A model generated the notes under the pieces. It worked only from the letters and a program-made list of their open reading frames with translations. It was not told where the DNA came from and did not search any database. Positions 2,676 to 37,359 of a stretch of DNA of 40,105 nucleotides are shown here, piece after piece. Numbering within the stretch: position 1 is the stretch's first letter; every line of letters begins with the position of its first letter. This DNA comes from Clostridia bacterium (GTDB lineage: Bacteria; Bacillota; Clostridia; Christensenellales; UBA1242): positions 1-40,105 of the forward strand of contig JAQUUD010000001.1 in NCBI GenBank assembly GCA_028694075.1, in the 5' to 3' direction. The position numbers were made by a program, and so were the translations under genes.

Positions 2676-2700
2676 GCACTTTTGTGCTTTGTTTTTTAGT

Positions 2701-3066
2701 TATCAGTTAGTCTGTAAGCCGAGTTCTGTATTAAATGGTCATCTATCTAGATGATATATCTCTATATCATTCAAGCGGTATTTTTGGATAACGCGAGAGA
2801 ACAAGCGCATATGTTATCACTTAACCTTGCTTCAAGTGGGGTTTACATGGCACATCTTGTTACCAAGATGTCGGTGGTCTCTTACACCGCCTTTTCACCA
2901 TCACCGCAATTTTAAAAATAAATTTAATTTCACGGCAGTATATTTCTGTTGCACTTTCCTTAGAGTTGCCTCCACCGGCAGTTAACCGGCACCCAGTTCT
3001 CTTAAAGCTCGGACTTTCCTCGGAACTGTCATTATAACAATCCCGCGACCATCTGGCTAGCTGACA
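2701..3066 (-). ncRNA. rnpB: RNase P RNA, bacterial class A
   Basis: The minus strand contains GAGGAAAGUCCGAGC (reverse complement of 3007..3021). It also contains GGAAAGUGCAACAGAAAUAUACUGCCG, GGUGUAAGAGACCACC, GUAAACCCCACUUGAAGCAAGG and ACAGAACUCGGCUUACAG. A P1-like pairing joins 3057..3066 and 2701..2710. The layout parallels E. coli M1 RNA. Confidence 0.93.
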
Positions 3067-3072
3067 TCATAT

Positions 3073-3100
3073 ATTATACTGAATTTAAAGAAAATGTCAA
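3073..3100 (-). promoter_or_regulatory. Sigma-A promoter for rnpB
   Basis: The minus strand reads TTGACA (3095..3100)-16 nt-TATAAT (3073..3078). This places the transcription start about 7 nt downstream, at the predicted RNA 5' end. Confidence 0.7.
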
Positions 3101-3146: not shown

Positions 3147-3730
3147 CGCGGACCAGCCAAACGAACAAAGCGAGCGGGCGTTAGCAGAGCGAGCGGGCGT
3201 TAGCAGGGCGAGCGGTCAGTTCCAGCCAAACGGACAAAGCGAGCGGGCGTTAGCAGGGCGAGCGGGCAGTTCCAGCCAAACGGACAAAGCGAGCGGGCGT
3301 TAGCAGAGCAAGCGGGCGTTAGCAGAGCGAGCGGTCAGTTCCAGCCAAACGAACAAAGCGAGCGGGCGTTAGCAGGGCGAGCGGGCGTTAGCAGGGCGAG
3401 CGGGCGTTAGCAGGGCGAGCGGGCAGTTCCAGCCAAACGGACAAAGCGAGCGGGCGTTAGCAGGGCGAGCGGGCGTTAGCAAAGCAAGCGGACAAGTCAA
3501 CCAAACGGACAAAGCGAGCGGGCGTTAGCAGAGCAAGCGGGCGTTAGCAGGGCGAGCGGTCAGTTCCAGCCAAACGGACAAAGCGAGCGGGCGTTAGCAA
3601 AGCAAGCGGACAAGCCAACCAAACGGGCAAAGCGAGCGGGCGAAGCGAAGCAAGCAGGGCGAGCGTCAAGCCAGTCAAACGGACAGAGCGAGCGGACAAA
3701 TCAACAGTCAAACGGGCTGGTCAAACAGGC
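3147..3730. repeat. GC-rich hierarchical tandem-repeat array A
   Basis: About 9-10 super-units. Each has a 22-nt punctuation (cagttccagccaaacggacaaa), then 1-3 copies of the 19-nt unit gcgagcgggcgttagcagg, then a 9-nt partial unit. The + strand is G-rich and T-poor. The array degenerates toward its right end. Confidence 0.9.
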
Positions 3731-3732
3731 TT

Positions 3733-3776
3733 TAAAAAAAATTAATCAGGTTACTGGTTAAGCGGTAACCTGATTA
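3733..3776 (-). terminator. Rho-independent terminator of rnhA
   Basis: A 12-bp stem taatcaggttac/gtaacctgatta (3743..3754 with 3765..3776) is followed on the minus strand by a T8 run. Confidence 0.75.
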
Positions 3777-3873: not shown

Positions 3874-4323
3874 TTACTTTTTTTCGCCAATAATTTTTTG
3901 AACTTCATTTCTTGCAAGTTCGTCACAGCGGTTGTTATAAATATTACTTGAATGCCCTTTTATTTTATGCCAATTAACTCGATGTTGTTTTGTTAATTCA
4001 ATTAATTGTTTCCAAAGGTCTTGATTTAAAACCGGCTTTTTATCAGAAGTTTTCCAATTGTTGTTTATCCAATTTGTCGTCCAACTTTGAATAAAAGCAT
4101 TAATAACATAAGCGCTGTCTGAATATACATCAACTATGCAAATTTCTTTTAAGGCTTGTAATCCTTTTATAATTGCCGTGAGTTCCATTCGGTTATTTGT
4201 TGTTTCAGGCTCACCGCCGGACAATTCTTTCAATGCTTTTTGATGCAATAAAATAGCGCCCCAGCCACCCGGGCCGGGATTATATGAACAAGCACCATCA
4301 GTATATAAAACAACTCTTTTCAT
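3874..4323 (-). CDS. rnhA: Ribonuclease HI
   Basis: MKRVVLYTDGACSYNPGPGGWGAILL... is the canonical RNase HI N-terminus, with the catalytic Asp at residue 9. The ORF was trimmed from 4353 to the ATG at 4323 because the extension lies inside the tRNA. Confidence 0.9.
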   Translation of the reverse strand: MKRVVLYTDGACSYNPGPGGWGAILLHQKALKELSGGEPETTNNRMELTAIIKGLQALKEICIVDVYSDSAYVINAFIQSWTTNWINNNWKTSDKKPVLNQDLWKQLIELTKQHRVNWHKIKGHSSNIYNNRCDELARNEVQKIIGEKK

Positions 4324-4397
4324 TGGCAGGGATGGAAGGAATCGAACCCTCAAAGCTGGTTTTGGAGACCAGAGCTATACCATTTAACTACATCCCT
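4324..4397 (-). tRNA. trnW: tRNA-Trp (anticodon CCA) with encoded 3' CCA
   Basis: The minus strand reads AGGGATGTAGTTAAATGGTATAGCTCTGGTCTCCAAAACCAGCTTTGAGGGTTCGATTCCTTCCATCCCTGCCA. The acceptor stem is AGGGATG/CATCCCT, the anticodon stem is CTGGT/ACCAG, the loop is CTCCAAA, and the T-loop is GGTTCGATTCC. Confidence 0.93.
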
Positions 4398-5951: not shown

Positions 5952-6111
5952 ATTTAATCCTTTAATTAAGATTATCACGCATTTAGTATTATTTTGTCAA
6001 GTTATTTGCTTTAAAATATATTTTTTGTTTATTTTAATATAAATTTCAAGATTTAGGTGTCTTTTTATTGTTTGTCAATTTATTATAATTTTAGCAGTGC
6101 CCGCTAATTAA

Positions 6112-6218
6112 CCGGCGAAGCCGGCGGGCGTTTGCCGTGCAAACGCCCGTGCGATATGCTTGGGGCAAGCCCCAAGCATATCGCCAAATCGCTTTCAGCG
6201 ATTTTTCGGCTTCGCCGG
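6112..6218. repeat. Nested perfect palindrome: 12-bp closing stem enclosing three hairpins
   Basis: Closing stem ccggcgaagccg (6112..6123) pairs with cggcttcgccgg (6207..6218). Arms are cgggcgtttgc-cgt-gcaaacgcccg, gcgatatgcttgggg-caa(g)-ccccaagcatatcgc and aaatcgct-ttc-agcgattt. Confidence 0.85.
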
Positions 6219-9852: not shown

Positions 9853-9956
9853 GTCTATTGTATAAAATTATCATCGTGCTTTCAAAATTAAGTTGAAATA
9901 ACCATACTTTTAATATAATTATTAATTTTTTTAATCAAAAAAGTTGCATAATCGGT

Positions 9957-10282
9957 TGGCGAAGTCAAACAAATCAAACGGACAAGTCGAACAAGTCAAA
10001 CGGACAAAGCGAGCGGGCGAAGCGGAGCGGAGCAGGGCGAGCGGGCGAAGCGGAGCGAGCGGGCGGAGCAGGGCGAGCGGGCGAAGCGGAGCGAGCGGGC
10101 GGAGCAGGGCGAGCGGGCGAAGCGGAGCGAGCGGGCAACAGTCAAACGGACAAGTCGAACTGGTCAAACGGACAAGTCGAACTGGTCGAACGGACAAGTC
10201 GAACTGGTCGAACGGACAAGTCGAACTGGTCGAACGGACAAAGCGAGCGGACAACAAGTCAAACGGACAAGTCAAACAAAAA
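9957..10282. repeat. GC-rich tandem-repeat array B (two sub-arrays)
   Basis: Sub-array 1 has 18-nt units gcgagcgggcgaagcgga and gcgagcgggcggagcagg alternating, giving a 36-nt super-period with about 3.5 copies (10009..10136). Sub-array 2 has the 22-nt unit ggacaagtcgaactggtcgaac in about 5 copies (10146..10240). The array is flanked by GTCAAAC(A/G) motifs. The + strand is nearly T-free. Confidence 0.9.
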
Positions 10283-10386
10283 GCGGGCAGGGAAGCAAAT
10301 TTTTGACCTTCAAGTCAAAAATTTTCAGCAAAACTGATTCAAGTTTTGCTGAACAAGCCTTTAAAGGCTTGTTCTTCCCTGCCCGC
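10283..10386. repeat. Nested perfect palindrome: 13-bp closing stem enclosing three hairpins, abutting array B
   Basis: Closing stem gcgggcagggaag (10283..10295) pairs with cttccctgcccgc (10374..10386). Arms are aaatttttgac-cttcaa-gtcaaaaattt, cagcaaaact-gattca-agttttgctg and aacaagcct-ttaa-aggcttgtt. On the minus strand it is followed by TTTTTGTTTG. Confidence 0.88.
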
Positions 10387-10533
10387 AATTTAGTTGGTAA
10401 AAATCCTAAAATATTAAATTATCTTTACAATAATCAATCAAATATTAATCTTACTTCAATTTAATTATTCTCAATATACTTTTTAAATTAAAATTAAAAT
10501 TCTTTACTGAACTTTTTATAAATAAATTTTTTT

Positions 10534-10599
10534 ATAAACTAAATTTTCTTATAAACTAAATTTTCTTATAAACTAAATTTTCTTATAAACTAAATTTTC
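10534..10599. repeat. AT-rich 17-nt tandem repeat, about 3.9 copies
   Basis: The unit ataaactaaattttctt is repeated perfectly at 10534, 10551 and 10568, with a partial copy at 10585. It lies just downstream of the ypeB stop. Confidence 0.9.
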
Positions 10600-18273: not shown

Positions 18274-19242
18274 TTACATACTTCGGTCTTCGGTTAAATC
18301 ATTTTGTTTTTCAAACGCTGTTTTAGTTCTTCTAGTATATCTATTAATATCTTGACTTATTTTATATTTTATGTAACTCGTATTAAAACTTTTAACTAAA
18401 TCTGTATATCTTATTTTATAAAATTCTTTTTCCTGATTTGTTTTTGATTGTTTTATTCGTTCATTGCAAATTTTTTTCATATCCGTGGGAAGTCTTTCTA
18501 ATAATTCCTTATTTTCAAAAATATCAAACAACCATTTAATTGGAGAAATTTCTTTGCTTACGTTTCTTTTAACATTGCAAAACAAACCCGGGAAAAAGCA
18601 ATCAGACAAAAGATTGATATATGAACTTTCTTTTTCCGTGAAATAATCAATACATTTTGGATATTTTGCTATCATATCAACCATAAAATCAACATTTTTC
18701 CTTAATTTTTCTGGAACGGAAAGCATTGCAATAGGATCCTTTTTGATTGCTATTTCCATAACTTCGGGATCTTTCAAAAAATTATGTACAGCATAATGAC
18801 AACCATTTTCAATGGCAAAAATGCAAAAGTCTTTATCTGATTGAAGTTTTCCAGCAATAATAAAAGCATTAGGGCTGACTTTTATAAGGTTTTTGGCAAA
18901 TTCAATATCATTTTCAAGCAGTCTGCTGTCAATAAACAATAATGCACGTTCATCATAACCAACCGCCTTCAACATAACATTTTTATGTCTATTAAATTGG
19001 ATATTAAGGAAAAATCCAAGTTTTATTTTTTTTTGTTTTGATTTATCATTGTAAATTCCTGAGAAAGAATTGTCAATTAGTGGGAAATGATAATTTCTAT
19101 TGATTTGTTTTATTTGCTCTGATTTTTTTCTTAAATTTTCTTCGGTTAAAATCTTGCCTACTCTTTCTAAAACTTTTTCTAAAATGGCTTCTTCTTTTTC
19201 GGTTAATATTATTTGCTCTTTTTCATCTATTTCATTTTCCAT
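18274..19242 (-). CDS. DUF4116-like repeat protein
   Basis: 322 aa with RBS aaaaggagaatttaATG. It has repeats of the type ..SPNAFIIAG..SDKDFCIFAIENGCHYAVHNFLKDPEVMEIAIKKDPIAMLSVPEKLRKNVDF, as in DUF4116. Confidence 0.7.
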   Translation of the reverse strand: MENEIDEKEQIILTEKEEAILEKVLERVGKILTEENLRKKSEQIKQINRNYHFPLIDNSFSGIYNDKSKQKKIKLGFFLNIQFNRHKNVMLKAVGYDERALLFIDSRLLENDIEFAKNLIKVSPNAFIIAGKLQSDKDFCIFAIENGCHYAVHNFLKDPEVMEIAIKKDPIAMLSVPEKLRKNVDFMVDMIAKYPKCIDYFTEKESSYINLLSDCFFPGLFCNVKRNVSKEISPIKWLFDIFENKELLERLPTDMKKICNERIKQSKTNQEKEFYKIRYTDLVKSFNTSYIKYKISQDINRYTRRTKTAFEKQNDLTEDRSM

Positions 19243-19526
19243 TAAATTCTCCTTTTTTTAAAACATTGTTTTATTTTCATAAATTCAAAATATTTATTAA
19301 ATATTCCAATTATTCTATTTTTGCTTTGATTTGTGTTTGTTCATTACTCGTTTTGTTTAAATTTATCCTACAACTTGCATATAAATATATTACTTAAATT
19401 CAACAAATTAATAAATTTTTTTAAGTTTATAATACCACAATTTCTAAAAATGTCAATAATAAAAAATTTCAAAAATTCTTCAATAAACTGAAAAAAATTT
19501 GGGTTTGTATTTATTAAATTTCAAAA

Positions 19527-19572
19527 AAACCAGCCCGCCCGCTCGCGACAAGTTAATGCACACTCGCCAATT
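19527..19572. repeat. Solo GC-rich repeat core in inverted orientation
   Basis: ccagcccgcccgctcgcgac carries the reverse complement of GCGAGCGGGCGGG. It lies upstream of a + strand gene. Confidence 0.5.
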
Positions 19573-19787
19573 CTTCTAATTTTAACTCGATCATTTTTTT
19601 AATAATGATATTTCCAATTTGTCAGTAATTAAAAATATTCAAATTGAGTAATTTATTAAATATTTTAATAATTTTCAATATTTTAGTTAACTTATAAAAT
19701 TAATTCGTATAAAATCGCTTATATTAATAATGCTAATTATATCTATATTAAATTATTTGCTAGTATAAAAAATTACTAAGCTTTCAG

Positions 19788-19816
19788 TTGACTTATGCAG
19801 AATAATGGATTATTAT
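19788..19816 (+). promoter_or_regulatory. Putative sigma-A promoter for the 19871 gene
   Basis: TTGACT-17 nt-TATTAT, about 55 nt upstream of the start codon. Confidence 0.45.
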
Positions 19817-19870
19817 AAAATAATTTGTAATGCATATTTTAATTAATATAAAAAATGGAGGATTTACAAA

Positions 19871-21175
19871 ATGTTTATGTCAAATAAAGGAATGCAAAAA
19901 CTTATTGCAAGCGGAATCGCATTGCTTATGTCGTTGACAGCACTGTTTGTGACAGCTTGGGCAATTTTAAGCACTGAAAAAGTGGGTTTGAGTGTTAATA
20001 TATCTTTTGACCCAGCAGTCACCACCAAAGTCTATTTGGCAACGGACAGTAGTTCGGCGGTGGATTTCAAACAACCGAATTCAACTGTAACTGCTGAAAA
20101 CTTTGCAAAAGCAAATTCAGCTTTGATTTTAGACACCAAAGATGGAAACTCACTTCAAAAAGACGCATTTGAACTATTGGGTGCGGACAATGGTTTGAAA
20201 TGCGATGCAAACGGCGAAATGGAGTTTTATGTTTTTGTTGAAAATTACAGCGAAACTGAGAGCGTCTATTATCGTGCAAATATAAACTTTGTTGGCACGG
20301 GCGAACAAGTTGCACCATTTAGCACAGTAACTAACCCTAGTTTTGAAACCGCCGGAACTGCCTTGGGAGTTGAAAGCCCTTCCATAAGCCTGCTTATCTT
20401 TAAAATTCTATCTGATAGTGACACGGGATTAAACGCAAACACAATTCAAATTGAGATTGATTTATCTACATCATTCGCTTCAATATTGGGTTTAGCACAA
20501 TATACTTCTGGAAATTATAGTGGGCTTTTTTATATTGACATGGGGGAATATCCACAAACACAAGAAATAAACACTGAAATAATATCAGGTATAACTGGTG
20601 AACCCGATGCAAATAATTATTATACAAGTTCAGTAAATGGAGAAAAATATGCTAGAAGAGGCACCGATCCAAATTATACTTACTATTTAGTCGAACCAGT
20701 AAGATGGCTTGTTATAGGAAATAGCGGAACTTATGCTGATTTTCCTAATAAAAACTTTGATACTTTAGGATCTAACCAACTGCTCTTAATTAGCGAAAAT
20801 TTAATATCTGCATCAACTTATAGTGTCAATTTAAATAATCCATTAGGAAATACAATATTTAGTGATTTAGAAAAAAATAAATTAAGCAAGTTCGGAAATA
20901 ATCAATATCTTTACTCGTTGTCAAAAGACACAGAAGGTTATCCATATAGAATCGATTATTATTTAACTGTAAATCAAAGTAGATGTTCACCAACAGCATA
21001 TGCTTCTTCAATATTAAATTTATATGCTTCTGATAGATTTTGGGTACAAAGTCAAAATTATGCAGCAACGCTGAAAAAATATGCAATTCATAGTAATATG
21101 GGAACCTATTATTCTTCTGTTTCTGAAACTACTAATATTCTTTTAGTTCGCTCTACAATCATTTTAAATTTTTAA
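19871..21175 (+). CDS. Secreted or anchored protein: conserved N-terminal beta-rich domain plus DUF6273-like C-terminal domain (paralogue 1)
   Basis: RBS ggaggatttacaaaATG and signal anchor MQKLIASGIALLMSLTALFV. The N-terminal ~200 aa are highly similar to the 23759 gene. The C-terminus has EPVRWLVIGN, NQLLLISE, RFWVQS and VRSTIILNF, resembling the DUF6273 motifs W.VL, LLLS, WWLRS and GVRPA. Confidence 0.8.
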   Translation: MFMSNKGMQKLIASGIALLMSLTALFVTAWAILSTEKVGLSVNISFDPAVTTKVYLATDSSSAVDFKQPNSTVTAENFAKANSALILDTKDGNSLQKDAFELLGADNGLKCDANGEMEFYVFVENYSETESVYYRANINFVGTGEQVAPFSTVTNPSFETAGTALGVESPSISLLIFKILSDSDTGLNANTIQIEIDLSTSFASILGLAQYTSGNYSGLFYIDMGEYPQTQEINTEIISGITGEPDANNYYTSSVNGEKYARRGTDPNYTYYLVEPVRWLVIGNSGTYADFPNKNFDTLGSNQLLLISENLISASTYSVNLNNPLGNTIFSDLEKNKLSKFGNNQYLYSLSKDTEGYPYRIDYYLTVNQSRCSPTAYASSILNLYASDRFWVQSQNYAATLKKYAIHSNMGTYYSSVSETTNILLVRSTIILNF

Positions 21176-25909: not shown

Positions 25910-25958
25910 TTTTATCTCCTATTTTTTATTTGTTTTTTTATTTATTATTTTAATTTAA

Positions 25959-26216
25959 GGTCTAACGGGCAAATCAAACGGGTCAAACGGACCGAGCGAG
26001 CGGGCGAGCCAGAGTCTAACGGGCAATTCAAACGGGTCAAACGGACCGAGCGAGCGGGCGAGCCAGAGTCTAACGGGCAATTCAAACGGGTCTAACGGAC
26101 CGAGCGAGCGGGCGAGCCAGAGTCTAACGGGCAATTCAAACGGGTCTAACGGACCGAGCGAGCGGGCGAGCCAGAGTCTAACGGGCAATTCAAACGGGTC
26201 TAACGGACAAATCAAA
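25959..26216. repeat. GC-rich tandem-repeat array C (54-nt period, about 4.5 copies)
   Basis: The unit gtctaacgggcaattcaaacgggtc(t/a)aacggaccgagcgagcgggcgagccaga has ACCGAG phase markers at 25991, 26045, 26099 and 26153. It shares the GCGAGCGGGCG and CAAACGGG/TAACGGAC motifs with arrays A and B. Confidence 0.9.
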
Positions 26217-36405: not shown

Positions 36406-37359
36406 TTATTCTTCTTCTTCTCTCAGTCCAAGACCGAATACTTCAAGTTTTTGGACAACTTCTTCGATAGACTTTAACCCCAAATTACGAACTTTCAACA
36501 TGTCAGTTCTTGATTTGTTAACTAAATCTTCAACTGTGTTTATATTTGCACGTTTCAAGCAATTGTATGACCTAACTGAAAAGTCCATTTCTTCAATCGG
36601 CATTTCCATTACTTTTGACTGCAAGTCATCTTCCTTCGGTTTAAGTACATTAACTTCTGATAAAGTTCCATTCAATTCGGTAAACATTGAAATATGTTCG
36701 TTAATTATTTTTCCAGCCAATGCAACAACATCTTTTGCCGACATTGAACCATTGGTTTTAACTTCCAAAATCAACTTGTCATAATTAATATTTTGCCCAA
36801 CACGGGTGTTCTCCACATTAGGAATAACATTTAAAACAGGTGAATAAAGCGAATCTATTGCAATATATTCAATGCTGTCAATTCTTTCTTTGTTGATAAC
36901 ATTAGGAACATATCCCCTGCCTTTGCCAACTAAAATTTCCATATCGATGCTGGATTTTTGATCTAATGTGCAAATATGCAAGTCCGGATTTAATATTTCA
37001 ACTAAATCGTTCTGTTCAAAATCTCCGGCTTTGATTTCACCCGGGGTGTTTCTTTTAAGCCTAAGTATTGTGGTAAATTCTCTATTTAAGTCTGATGTTT
37101 TAAGCACCATTTGCTTAACATTTAAAACAATGTCAACCACATCTTCACTAACACCCGGTATTGTTGAAAACTCGTGTTGCACTCCAGCGATTTTTATGCC
37201 AATCGGAGCAATTCCCGGCATTGCAGAAAGCAATGTTCTTCTAAGGCAGTTGCCAATTGTTATGCCGTACCCTTTTTCAAGCGGTTCCACAATAAATTTT
37301 GCAAAACATGCATTTTCAGATTCTTCACAAGTTAACTTTGGTTTTTCAATTTCAATCAT
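36406..37359 (-). CDS. rpoA: DNA-directed RNA polymerase subunit alpha
   Basis: MIEIEKPK...GYGITIGNCLRRTLLSAMPG... with a C-terminal domain SVRSYNCLKRANINTVEDLV. Confidence 0.96.
   Translation of the reverse strand: MIEIEKPKLTCEESENACFAKFIVEPLEKGYGITIGNCLRRTLLSAMPGIAPIGIKIAGVQHEFSTIPGVSEDVVDIVLNVKQMVLKTSDLNREFTTILRLKRNTPGEIKAGDFEQNDLVEILNPDLHICTLDQKSSIDMEILVGKGRGYVPNVINKERIDSIEYIAIDSLYSPVLNVIPNVENTRVGQNINYDKLILEVKTNGSMSAKDVVALAGKIINEHISMFTELNGTLSEVNVLKPKEDDLQSKVMEMPIEEMDFSVRSYNCLKRANINTVEDLVNKSRTDMLKVRNLGLKSIEEVVQKLEVFGLGLREEEE

Follow-up and report, generated by a model that had tools for sequence, protein, structure and literature searches.

A GC-rich tandem array beside rnpB is probably one locus of a dispersed, non-coding satellite family in an AT-rich Clostridia clade

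The first 40,105 nt of contig JAQUUD010000001.1, from a Clostridia bacterium (assembly GCA_028694075.1), carry a GC-rich tandem array at 3147-3730, here called array 1, between the RNase HI gene rnhA and the RNase P RNA gene rnpB. We refer to this whole 40,105-nt stretch as the window, and L numbers (L122, L125, L139 and so on) label sequences from outside it. Array 1 is probably one locus of a lineage-restricted, dispersed, non-coding satellite family that grows by slippage or unequal recombination and is tolerated in the gaps between terminators and promoters. We put the probability of this reading at about 0.6. The array has a nested anatomy and belongs to a family whose members occupy the same kind of intergenic location. 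They turn over rapidly between strains, with one empty and one decayed site among relatives.

Array 1 differs sharply in composition from its surroundings. Its + strand is 29% A, 25% C, 38% G and 8% T (63% GC, 67% purine), against 31% GC in the window outside it. Over 3153-3609, Tandem Repeats Finder (TRF) detects nested periods of 19, 50, 69 and 88 nt, and a manual parse gives successive super-units of 69, 50, 69, 88, 68, 69, 49, 56, 33 and 37 nt. Each super-unit opens with a 22-nt punctuation, cagttccagccaaacggacaaa, continues with one to three copies of a 19-nt unit, GCGAGCGGGCGTTAGCAGG, and closes with a partial unit of 8-9 nt. Units become increasingly degenerate toward the rnhA side. On that side the rnhA terminator has an 11-bp stem (3744-3754/3765-3775), a 10-nt loop and then T8 at 3741-3734 on the minus strand; a consensus terminator scan missed it because the scan's loop limit is 8 nt. 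The rnpB promoter lies about 45 nt left of the other array edge. A first-pass annotation, made from the sequence alone, had described a GC-rich, T-poor, hierarchical array between the rnhA terminator and the rnpB promoter, and composition, TRF and the manual parse all agree with it. The base composition also bears out its claim that transcripts in the sense of the flanking genes would be rich in C and poor in A. The longest open reading frames (ORFs) in the array are 69 amino acids (aa) on the + strand and 55 aa on the - strand, and neither 19 nor 22 nt is a multiple of 3. Array 1 is therefore non-coding, as had been proposed.

Beneath the 19- and 22-nt units lies a 9-nt core that is common to all arrays, C-R-A-R-C-G-G-R-C, where R is a purine. 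A logo built from 208 aligned CGG sites in 13 arrays has C in 92% of sites at -4, A in 96% at -2, then CGG, and C in 88% at +4, with the purine positions about half A and half G. Because these purine positions toggle, the punctuation core CAAACGGAC and the unit core CGAGCGGGC are two purine states of one word. About half of the cores read AACGG, and half lack GGA. The 23-mer CAAACGGACAAAGCGAGCGGGCG is found in 11 of the 13 arrays. Successive cores are spaced by 9, 13, 17-20 or 22 nt.

The core is itself built on a shorter beat. On the G-rich strand, successive C residues are 4 nt apart in 56% of cases and 5 nt apart in 24%, against 11% and 8% for random placement. Lag-4 autocorrelation runs from +0.29 to +0.61 and is positive in 11/11 arrays. 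Runs of units made of C and three or four purines account for 61% of array 1 and 73% of array 2 (shuffles, 1.4%). The periods thus form a hierarchy of 4/5, 9/13, 19/22 and 50-88 nt. This nested C-purine hierarchy explains the T-poverty, the strand asymmetry and the missing self-complementarity of the arrays. Differences between copies are mostly A↔G (69), followed by A↔T (22), C↔T (8), G↔T (4) and A↔C (1), in counts that are not independent events. The A↔G excess is also present in the sole array of reversed orientation; it looks intrinsic to the C-purine pattern rather than a product of local transcription.

Array 1 belongs to a dispersed family that has two further arrays in the window (Table 1), and both this and the 4-5-nt C-purine beat go beyond what the first-pass annotation had claimed. 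Arrays 1, 2 and 3 share words and strand. Array 2 sits between the 3' structures of ypeB and the promoter of a gene for a Rho-like protein. Array 3 fills the clpC-hpf spacer, starting 27 nt past the clpC stop codon and ending 45 nt before the hpf ATG. With up to one mismatch, the core GCGAGCGGGCG occurs 28 times in the window where 0.08 are expected, and 27 of the 28 are on the + strand. A detector requiring at least three A[AG]CGG[AGT]C sites within 45 nt returned exactly these three arrays, with 30, 17 and 14 sites; in array 1 all 30 are on the + strand and none on the - strand. The minus strand of the window and shuffled sequences gave 0 arrays. A solitary GCGAGCGGGCG core in a divergent intergenic region could be the seed or the remnant of an array.

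Beyond the window, metagenome contigs were scanned with a 20-mer junction. This returned nine AT-rich contigs with arrays and one chance match of 58% GC. Three of these AT-rich contigs are orthologues of window loci (about 92% identity), and the rest are other loci. Most of the nine contigs terminate within an array, and short-read contigs break at arrays. An exact 21-mer junction had no match in species-representative genomes. A gapped double-core pattern in the same genomes gave at least 120 loci, nearly all of them high-GC chance matches, and was rejected. The only low-GC locus among the matches listed, L108, consists of eukaryote-like microsatellites (GGCG, GACG, CAAT, CTAT) unrelated to the arrays. 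Positions 1-1500 of L108, binned as a Metamycoplasmataceae metagenome-assembled genome (MAG), carry long (GACG)n, (GGCG)n, (CAAT)n, (CTAT)n and (AT)n tracts and look like eukaryotic DNA mis-binned into that MAG.

Searches of viral contigs, plasmids and phages (plasmids and phages by BLAST) found no match to the arrays, and neither did Rfam, even at E up to 1. A literature string search for array motifs returned unrelated primer sequences only. The first-pass annotation had not recognised the family, and these results concur: the array family is undescribed. Elsewhere in the window, at 36875-36899 on the + strand, Rfam gave a CRISPR-DR27 match below threshold (29.1 bits against a gathering score of 35, E 0.83), which is probably chance. 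A non-repeat module, GTCGCG..CAGCAAA(A)ATGTAGCGACGCGTGCG, stands beside array units at two different loci in related genomes (L140, 7538-8000; L130, first 50 nt, in the G-rich orientation, which is the reverse complement of the locus). Additional components may therefore belong to the family.

Comparison of related genomes shows how quickly the arrays turn over. Array 1 is 584 bp long in the window, but its orthologue in L125 measures about 287 bp, with both array edges and the flanks conserved at 92-93% identity. The L125 array has periods of 56 and 33 nt and lacks TTAGCAGG units, against periods of 19/50/69/88 nt in the window. Three strains diverge at the right end of array 2, yet their adjoining 108-nt element is 99-100% identical. 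At the array 2 site L132 (RNase HI 87% identical) carries an AT-richer array, CAGTCTAACGGGCAcATCAA, in the same orientation and at a contig end. The clpC-hpf spacer is empty and 53 nt long in L143 (HPF 83% identical). In L140/L141 (88%) it totals 463 nt with scattered degenerate units, in L139 (96%) it contains about 190 nt of array, and in the window it holds 261 nt of freshly amplified 54-mers. The first-pass annotation had suggested ongoing slippage or recombination and a comparison of array length between strains. Copy number does vary at both the array 1 and the clpC-hpf sites, in line with that suggestion.

The family also has limits. The detector found no arrays in 20 kb of the 73% relatives L133 and L135, and L145, a further 11 kb of the L133 contig, has no array at the one spacer examined. 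These genome comparisons point to birth, expansion and decay of arrays within a roughly genus-level clade. The host, an uncultured bacterium, encodes SleB, YpeB, HPF and a ClpB/ClpC-type ATPase, which points to a spore-forming Firmicute. The nearest named homologues come from 'Clostridia bacterium' MAGs. This organism and the 87-88% relative trace to samples Ga0172381, Ga0265294, SRR22315505, SRR8925729 and SRR29050538.

Location is the second regularity. Where both sides of an array are visible, the layout is a terminator or stop codon, then the array, then a promoter, among co-directional genes. The genes next to arrays are ordinary housekeeping genes, and those downstream include rnpB, rpsU (L123, with a perfect promoter), a tRNA gene (L127) and hpf. 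Between array and promoter lie 0 to about 77 nt. Tolerance alone predicts this layout, because an insertion that spares both terminator and promoter has no other place to go. Inspection by eye of the boundaries of 13 arrays found none of the marks of a MITE- or REP-type mobile element, neither terminal inverted repeats or hairpins nor target-site duplications; the edges fade gradually. A conserved promoter module beside the arrays was considered and was not convincing, as nothing beyond the consensus hexamers and a T-run is common to the rnpB and rpsU promoters. At 8 of 9 independent loci (about p = 0.04), all but L127/L128, the G-rich strand is antisense to the genes around it. Within 40 kb, replication direction is inseparable from gene orientation.

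These features suggest growth at nested registers. At the deepest layer, a cryptic tetra- or pentanucleotide beat of C and then three or four purines makes up the 9-nt core in its CAAACGGAC and CGAGCGGGC states. The 19/22-nt units and the super-units of 50-88 nt are the layers above it. Replication slippage and unequal recombination, the presumed engine, would act at these nested registers to lengthen, shorten and homogenise the arrays. Arrays would survive where an insertion is harmless, in the gap from a terminator or stop codon to the next promoter, and tolerance rather than a dedicated function would then lie behind their location. Eventually they would decay through point mutation. A likely side effect is that read-through transcripts would carry a long C-rich, A-poor and poorly structured tract.

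Several points weigh against this satellite reading. Identical 23-mers occur at loci older than a species split; independent neutral growth can hardly account for them, and a dispersal process, conversion between arrays or selection on the words is needed. GC-rich sequence should erode in a genome of 31% GC. The preponderance of A↔G over C↔T differences looks like constraint on the pattern. The G-rich strand is mostly antisense, as given above, and several arrays lie just upstream of strong promoters (rnpB, rpsU, tRNA). Each of these observations could point to function.

A first functional explanation is a transcription insulator, in which Rho or a Rho-like protein loads on the C-rich read-through RNA and stops transcription before the next promoter. 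Rho utilization (Rut) sites are pyrimidine-rich, with more C than G, and unstructured (PMC12350095), and leaky intrinsic terminators are backed up by Rho (bioRxiv 10.1101/2022.07.21.500918). The layout from terminator or stop codon through array to promoter fits this role, as does the C-rich strand being sense at all but one of the independent loci. Pyrimidines make up 64-71% of that strand in arrays 1, 2 and 3. Among all 100-nt stretches of the window, those in which C most exceeds G (by 22-35 points, with 66-78% pyrimidine) fall in arrays 2 and 1. The C-rich RNA folds worse than shuffles in 11/11 arrays (z +0.2 to +6.1; +7.2 for array 1 by a folding tool). Three arrays, namely array 3, L129 and L124a, follow a stop codon without an intervening hairpin. 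Finally, the gene directly downstream of array 2 encodes a protein with a predicted Rho fold.

Other properties of the RNA fit an insulator poorly. Array RNA is not G-poor; its sense G content is 21-26%, while elsewhere in the window G stands at about 14-17%. Judged by absolute folding energy, about -17 kcal/mol per 100 nt, it is more structured than random window stretches (-13), and B. subtilis Rut sites are at about -10. Since YC dinucleotides suffice for Rho, the conserved 9-mers and 23-mers would be left unexplained. In the L127/L128 array, which precedes a tRNA gene, it is the sense strand that is G-rich. Were array 3 a strong terminator, hpf would be separated from clpC and left with only a weak promoter that matches consensus at 9 of 12 positions.

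The model of the Rho-like protein has a full-length Rho-like fold (predicted local distance difference test score, pLDDT, 77; predicted template-modelling score, pTM, 0.67), and all top Foldseek matches in the PDB are Rho (E 1e-14, TM score about 0.55, about 14% identity). Sequence similarity to Rho is weak, and the P-loop position reads EGSKT. Its homologues number only 13 among 5.8 billion proteins, all from the host's Clostridia clade. However, no GC-rich array lies upstream of the gene's orthologues in L144 and L145 (76% and 66% identity), and a link between array and gene is therefore not established. On balance, we regard a Rho-linked insulator as unlikely, although it is the leading functional alternative. 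A more specific version holds that the arrays are cis-elements on the C-rich strand, (G-pyrimidine3-4)n, read by canonical Rho or by the rare, divergent Rho-fold protein encoded next to array 2. They would insulate the rnpB, rpsU, tRNA and hpf promoters, with the 9-mer as the preferred word. This version seems to us decidedly unlikely.

The arrays could instead be double-stranded DNA sites for a sequence-specific protein that reads C-R-A-R-C-G-G-R-C or GTCRAAC, for instance a nucleoid-associated or segregation protein, or a regulator like Spo0A for which they would act as a sink. From locus to locus and from strain to strain the core words are conserved but differently arranged, and purine-only variation at fixed positions resembles a degenerate recognition site. 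Placement just upstream of promoters would also suit a binding protein. The Spo0A box is TGTCGAA; the host is a spore-former, and GTCGAAC in array 2 matches six of the seven bases of this box. But GTCGAAC is restricted to array 2, and the other arrays have GTCAAAC or GTCTAAC. The varied core spacings keep no single helical phase, and the array-promoter distance is not fixed either. No candidate binding protein was identified. In relatives, one site is empty and one is decayed. A protein-site array has, in our judgement, only a slim chance of being correct.

A functional RNA from the G-rich strand is a further alternative, either as a sponge presenting CGGAC or GGA or through pairing of C-rich with G-rich transcripts of different arrays. 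A promoter-like site with 9 of 12 consensus positions at 9893-9922 (+) points into array 2, and A↔G variation would be expected to preserve pairing to a U-containing partner through G-U wobble. Yet scans of arrays 1 and 3 found no + strand promoter, and there is neither a conserved structure (z at or above zero in most arrays, and positive on both strands of array 1) nor an Rfam match. GGA, as noted, is missing from half of the cores. We consider such an RNA very unlikely.

Two readings of the G-rich strand as DNA fare worse. The first-pass annotation proposed that GGG runs on the + strand could form G-quadruplexes, a form of non-B DNA. Array 1 does have 26 GGG runs, and one relaxed cluster (loops of up to 12 nt) lies at 3364-3420. 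But the window arrays contain no canonical motif (four runs of at least three G with loops of 1-7 nt), G4Hunter maxima are only 0.72-1.24, and ViennaRNA used no quadruplex when quadruplexes were allowed. Eight of the 11 arrays examined lack a motif even with loops of up to 12 nt. The proposal is thus not borne out for the canonical motif, and a quadruplex element is extremely unlikely. The arrays might also be clusters of sites resembling Chi, which AddAB recognises. Chi is AGCGG in B. subtilis and GAAGCGG in S. aureus, and AGCGG occurs 22, 13 and 4 times in arrays 1, 2 and 3, all on one strand. Outside the arrays, however, AGCGG is not over-represented (maximal-order Markov model, z 1.6, rank 47 of 1024). 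Nor is it skewed to the presumed leading strand (31 on + and 23 on -), and the arrays are on the presumed lagging strand. Half of the cores are AACGG. A Chi cluster is hardly credible. An assembly artefact, a contaminant or a repetitive protein-coding gene can be dismissed: short-read contigs do break at arrays and arrays 2 and 3 contain long open frames, but independent assemblies from several samples (L125, L139, L122, L126) carry arrays at the same loci with matching flanks, contrary to the artefact that the first-pass annotation had named as one possible refutation. The frames stay open only because T, or A on the opposite strand, is scarce, and neither the 19-nt nor the 22-nt period is a multiple of 3.

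Table 1. Positions of the arrays and of neighbouring genes and elements in the window.
Feature	Position (nt)	Strand	Description
Array 1	3147..3730	+ (G-rich, T-poor strand)	Ten super-units
Array 2	9962..10277	+	18/36-nt GCGAGCGGGCG units and 22-nt GTCGAACGGACAAGTCGAACTG units
Array 3	25955..26215	+	54-nt unit x 4.6, 98% identity; clpC-hpf spacer
Solitary core GCGAGCGGGCG	19536..19546	-	Within divergent intergenic region 19242-19871
rnpB, RNase P RNA class A	2699..3064	-	Rfam RF00010, 257.9 bits
rnpB promoter, TTGACA-16-TATAAT	3073..3100	-	12/12 consensus match
rnhA intrinsic terminator	3734..3775	-	Read from sequence; directly right of array 1
rnhA, RNase HI, 149 aa	3874..4323	-	NCBIfam NF001236, E 4e-62; transcriptionally upstream gene
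Rho-like gene, 362 aa	8621-9709	-	Predicted fold; directly downstream of array 2
Cloverleaf element 1	10279-10386		Minimum free energy -64.5 kcal/mol, z -10.4; abuts array 2
Cloverleaf element 2	6102-6218		Minimum free energy -82.8 kcal/mol, z -10.7

The window holds other elements near the arrays (Table 1). Two cloverleaf elements, both perfect nested palindromes, each consist of a 12-13-bp closing stem enclosing three perfect hairpins, and neither has an Rfam match. The one that abuts array 2 shows 99% identity between strains that have 92% identity in the flanks. The other has a syntenic counterpart in L132 (3806-3903), with a compensatory change from G-C to T-A. A common origin of the arrays and the neighbouring cloverleaf palindromes was rejected: the shared 8-mers (8 and 6) are at background level, and 191 of 689 control stretches share at least five. 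Just past the ypeB stop codon, at 10516-10599, lies an AT-rich 17-nt tandem repeat, TTATAAACTAAATTTTC, in five copies with 97% identity.

A separate observation concerns rnhA. Within 4321-4397 on the minus strand, the encoded 3' CCA of tRNA-Trp (4324) directly abuts the rnhA ATG at 4323, with no Shine-Dalgarno sequence. A promoter, TTGACA-17-GATAAT, lies upstream of this tRNA gene at 4437-4409. L138, a 77% relative, has this junction as well (...CCCTGCCAATGAAA). Since the CCA abuts the ATG, tRNA processing could yield a leaderless rnhA mRNA.

The origin and purpose of dispersed intergenic repeats such as STAR and MIRU are unsettled, and the satellite family described here is an unusually legible case. 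Across related genomes, one genomic site can be seen empty, decayed, of modest size and freshly amplified. A strict strand rule holds, with C positions fixed and purines toggling between A and G. With this family, the birth, spread and possible transcriptional effects of bacterial satellites are directly testable. There is also a practical side: short-read assemblies of this Clostridia clade are interrupted at the arrays, and strains could be told apart by the variable copy number.

Some known systems resemble the arrays in part. Like CRISPR, they are short units regularly repeated in non-coding DNA. They have no unique spacers and no Rfam direct-repeat match, and no cas genes are among the annotated window ORFs; the first-pass view that array 1 is not CRISPR-like holds. 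The same annotation drew an analogy with the GC clusters of yeast mitochondrial genomes, which are likewise GC-rich islands dispersed through the intergenic DNA of an AT-rich genome. Those clusters are short, palindromic and hairpin-forming, whereas the arrays are direct repeats with self-complementarity below that of shuffled sequence (z +7.2, +3.9), so the analogy is loose. Rut sites are closer in some respects. The sense strand of the arrays is pyrimidine-rich with more C than G, is less folded than shuffled sequence and lies downstream of terminators or stop codons. Unlike Rut sites, the arrays are not G-poor, are more structured in absolute terms than the mapped B. subtilis sites and consist of words that are repeated and conserved. 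One array is also oriented the other way.

Two dispersed repeat families come nearer. STAR repeats of Staphylococcus aureus, an AT-rich Firmicute, are short GC-rich intergenic direct repeats whose loci expand and contract while their positions stay stable within a lineage; their function, origin and mode of spread are unknown (PMC3532100). The arrays share several of these traits: they are GC-rich direct repeats between the genes of an AT-rich Firmicute, and their loci grow and shrink. They lack the STAR 14-mer T(G/A/T)TGTTG(G/T)GGCCC(C/A); with up to two mismatches the window has two matches, both outside the arrays, against 1.39 expected. STAR repeats are spaced by at least 40 bp of recurring sequence, whereas array units abut and are nested, with a punctuation of 22 nt. 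The arrays also have an extreme strand asymmetry (8% T) and the 4-5-nt C-purine beat.

MIRU of mycobacteria are dispersed minisatellites of variable copy number, mostly intergenic and thought to be transcribed within operons (PMC3635867). The arrays, too, are dispersed intergenic tandem repeats whose copy number differs between strains, and the array 3 site is an operon junction in a relative. The MIRU host genome is GC-rich, whereas the arrays are the GC-richest DNA of their region in a host of 31% GC. MIRU units measure 40-100 bp, and the basic array units 9-22 nt. No sequence relationship between the two was seen, and none is expected for a Clostridia host. STAR and MIRU are the nearest known kinds to the array family, which differs from both in sequence and architecture.

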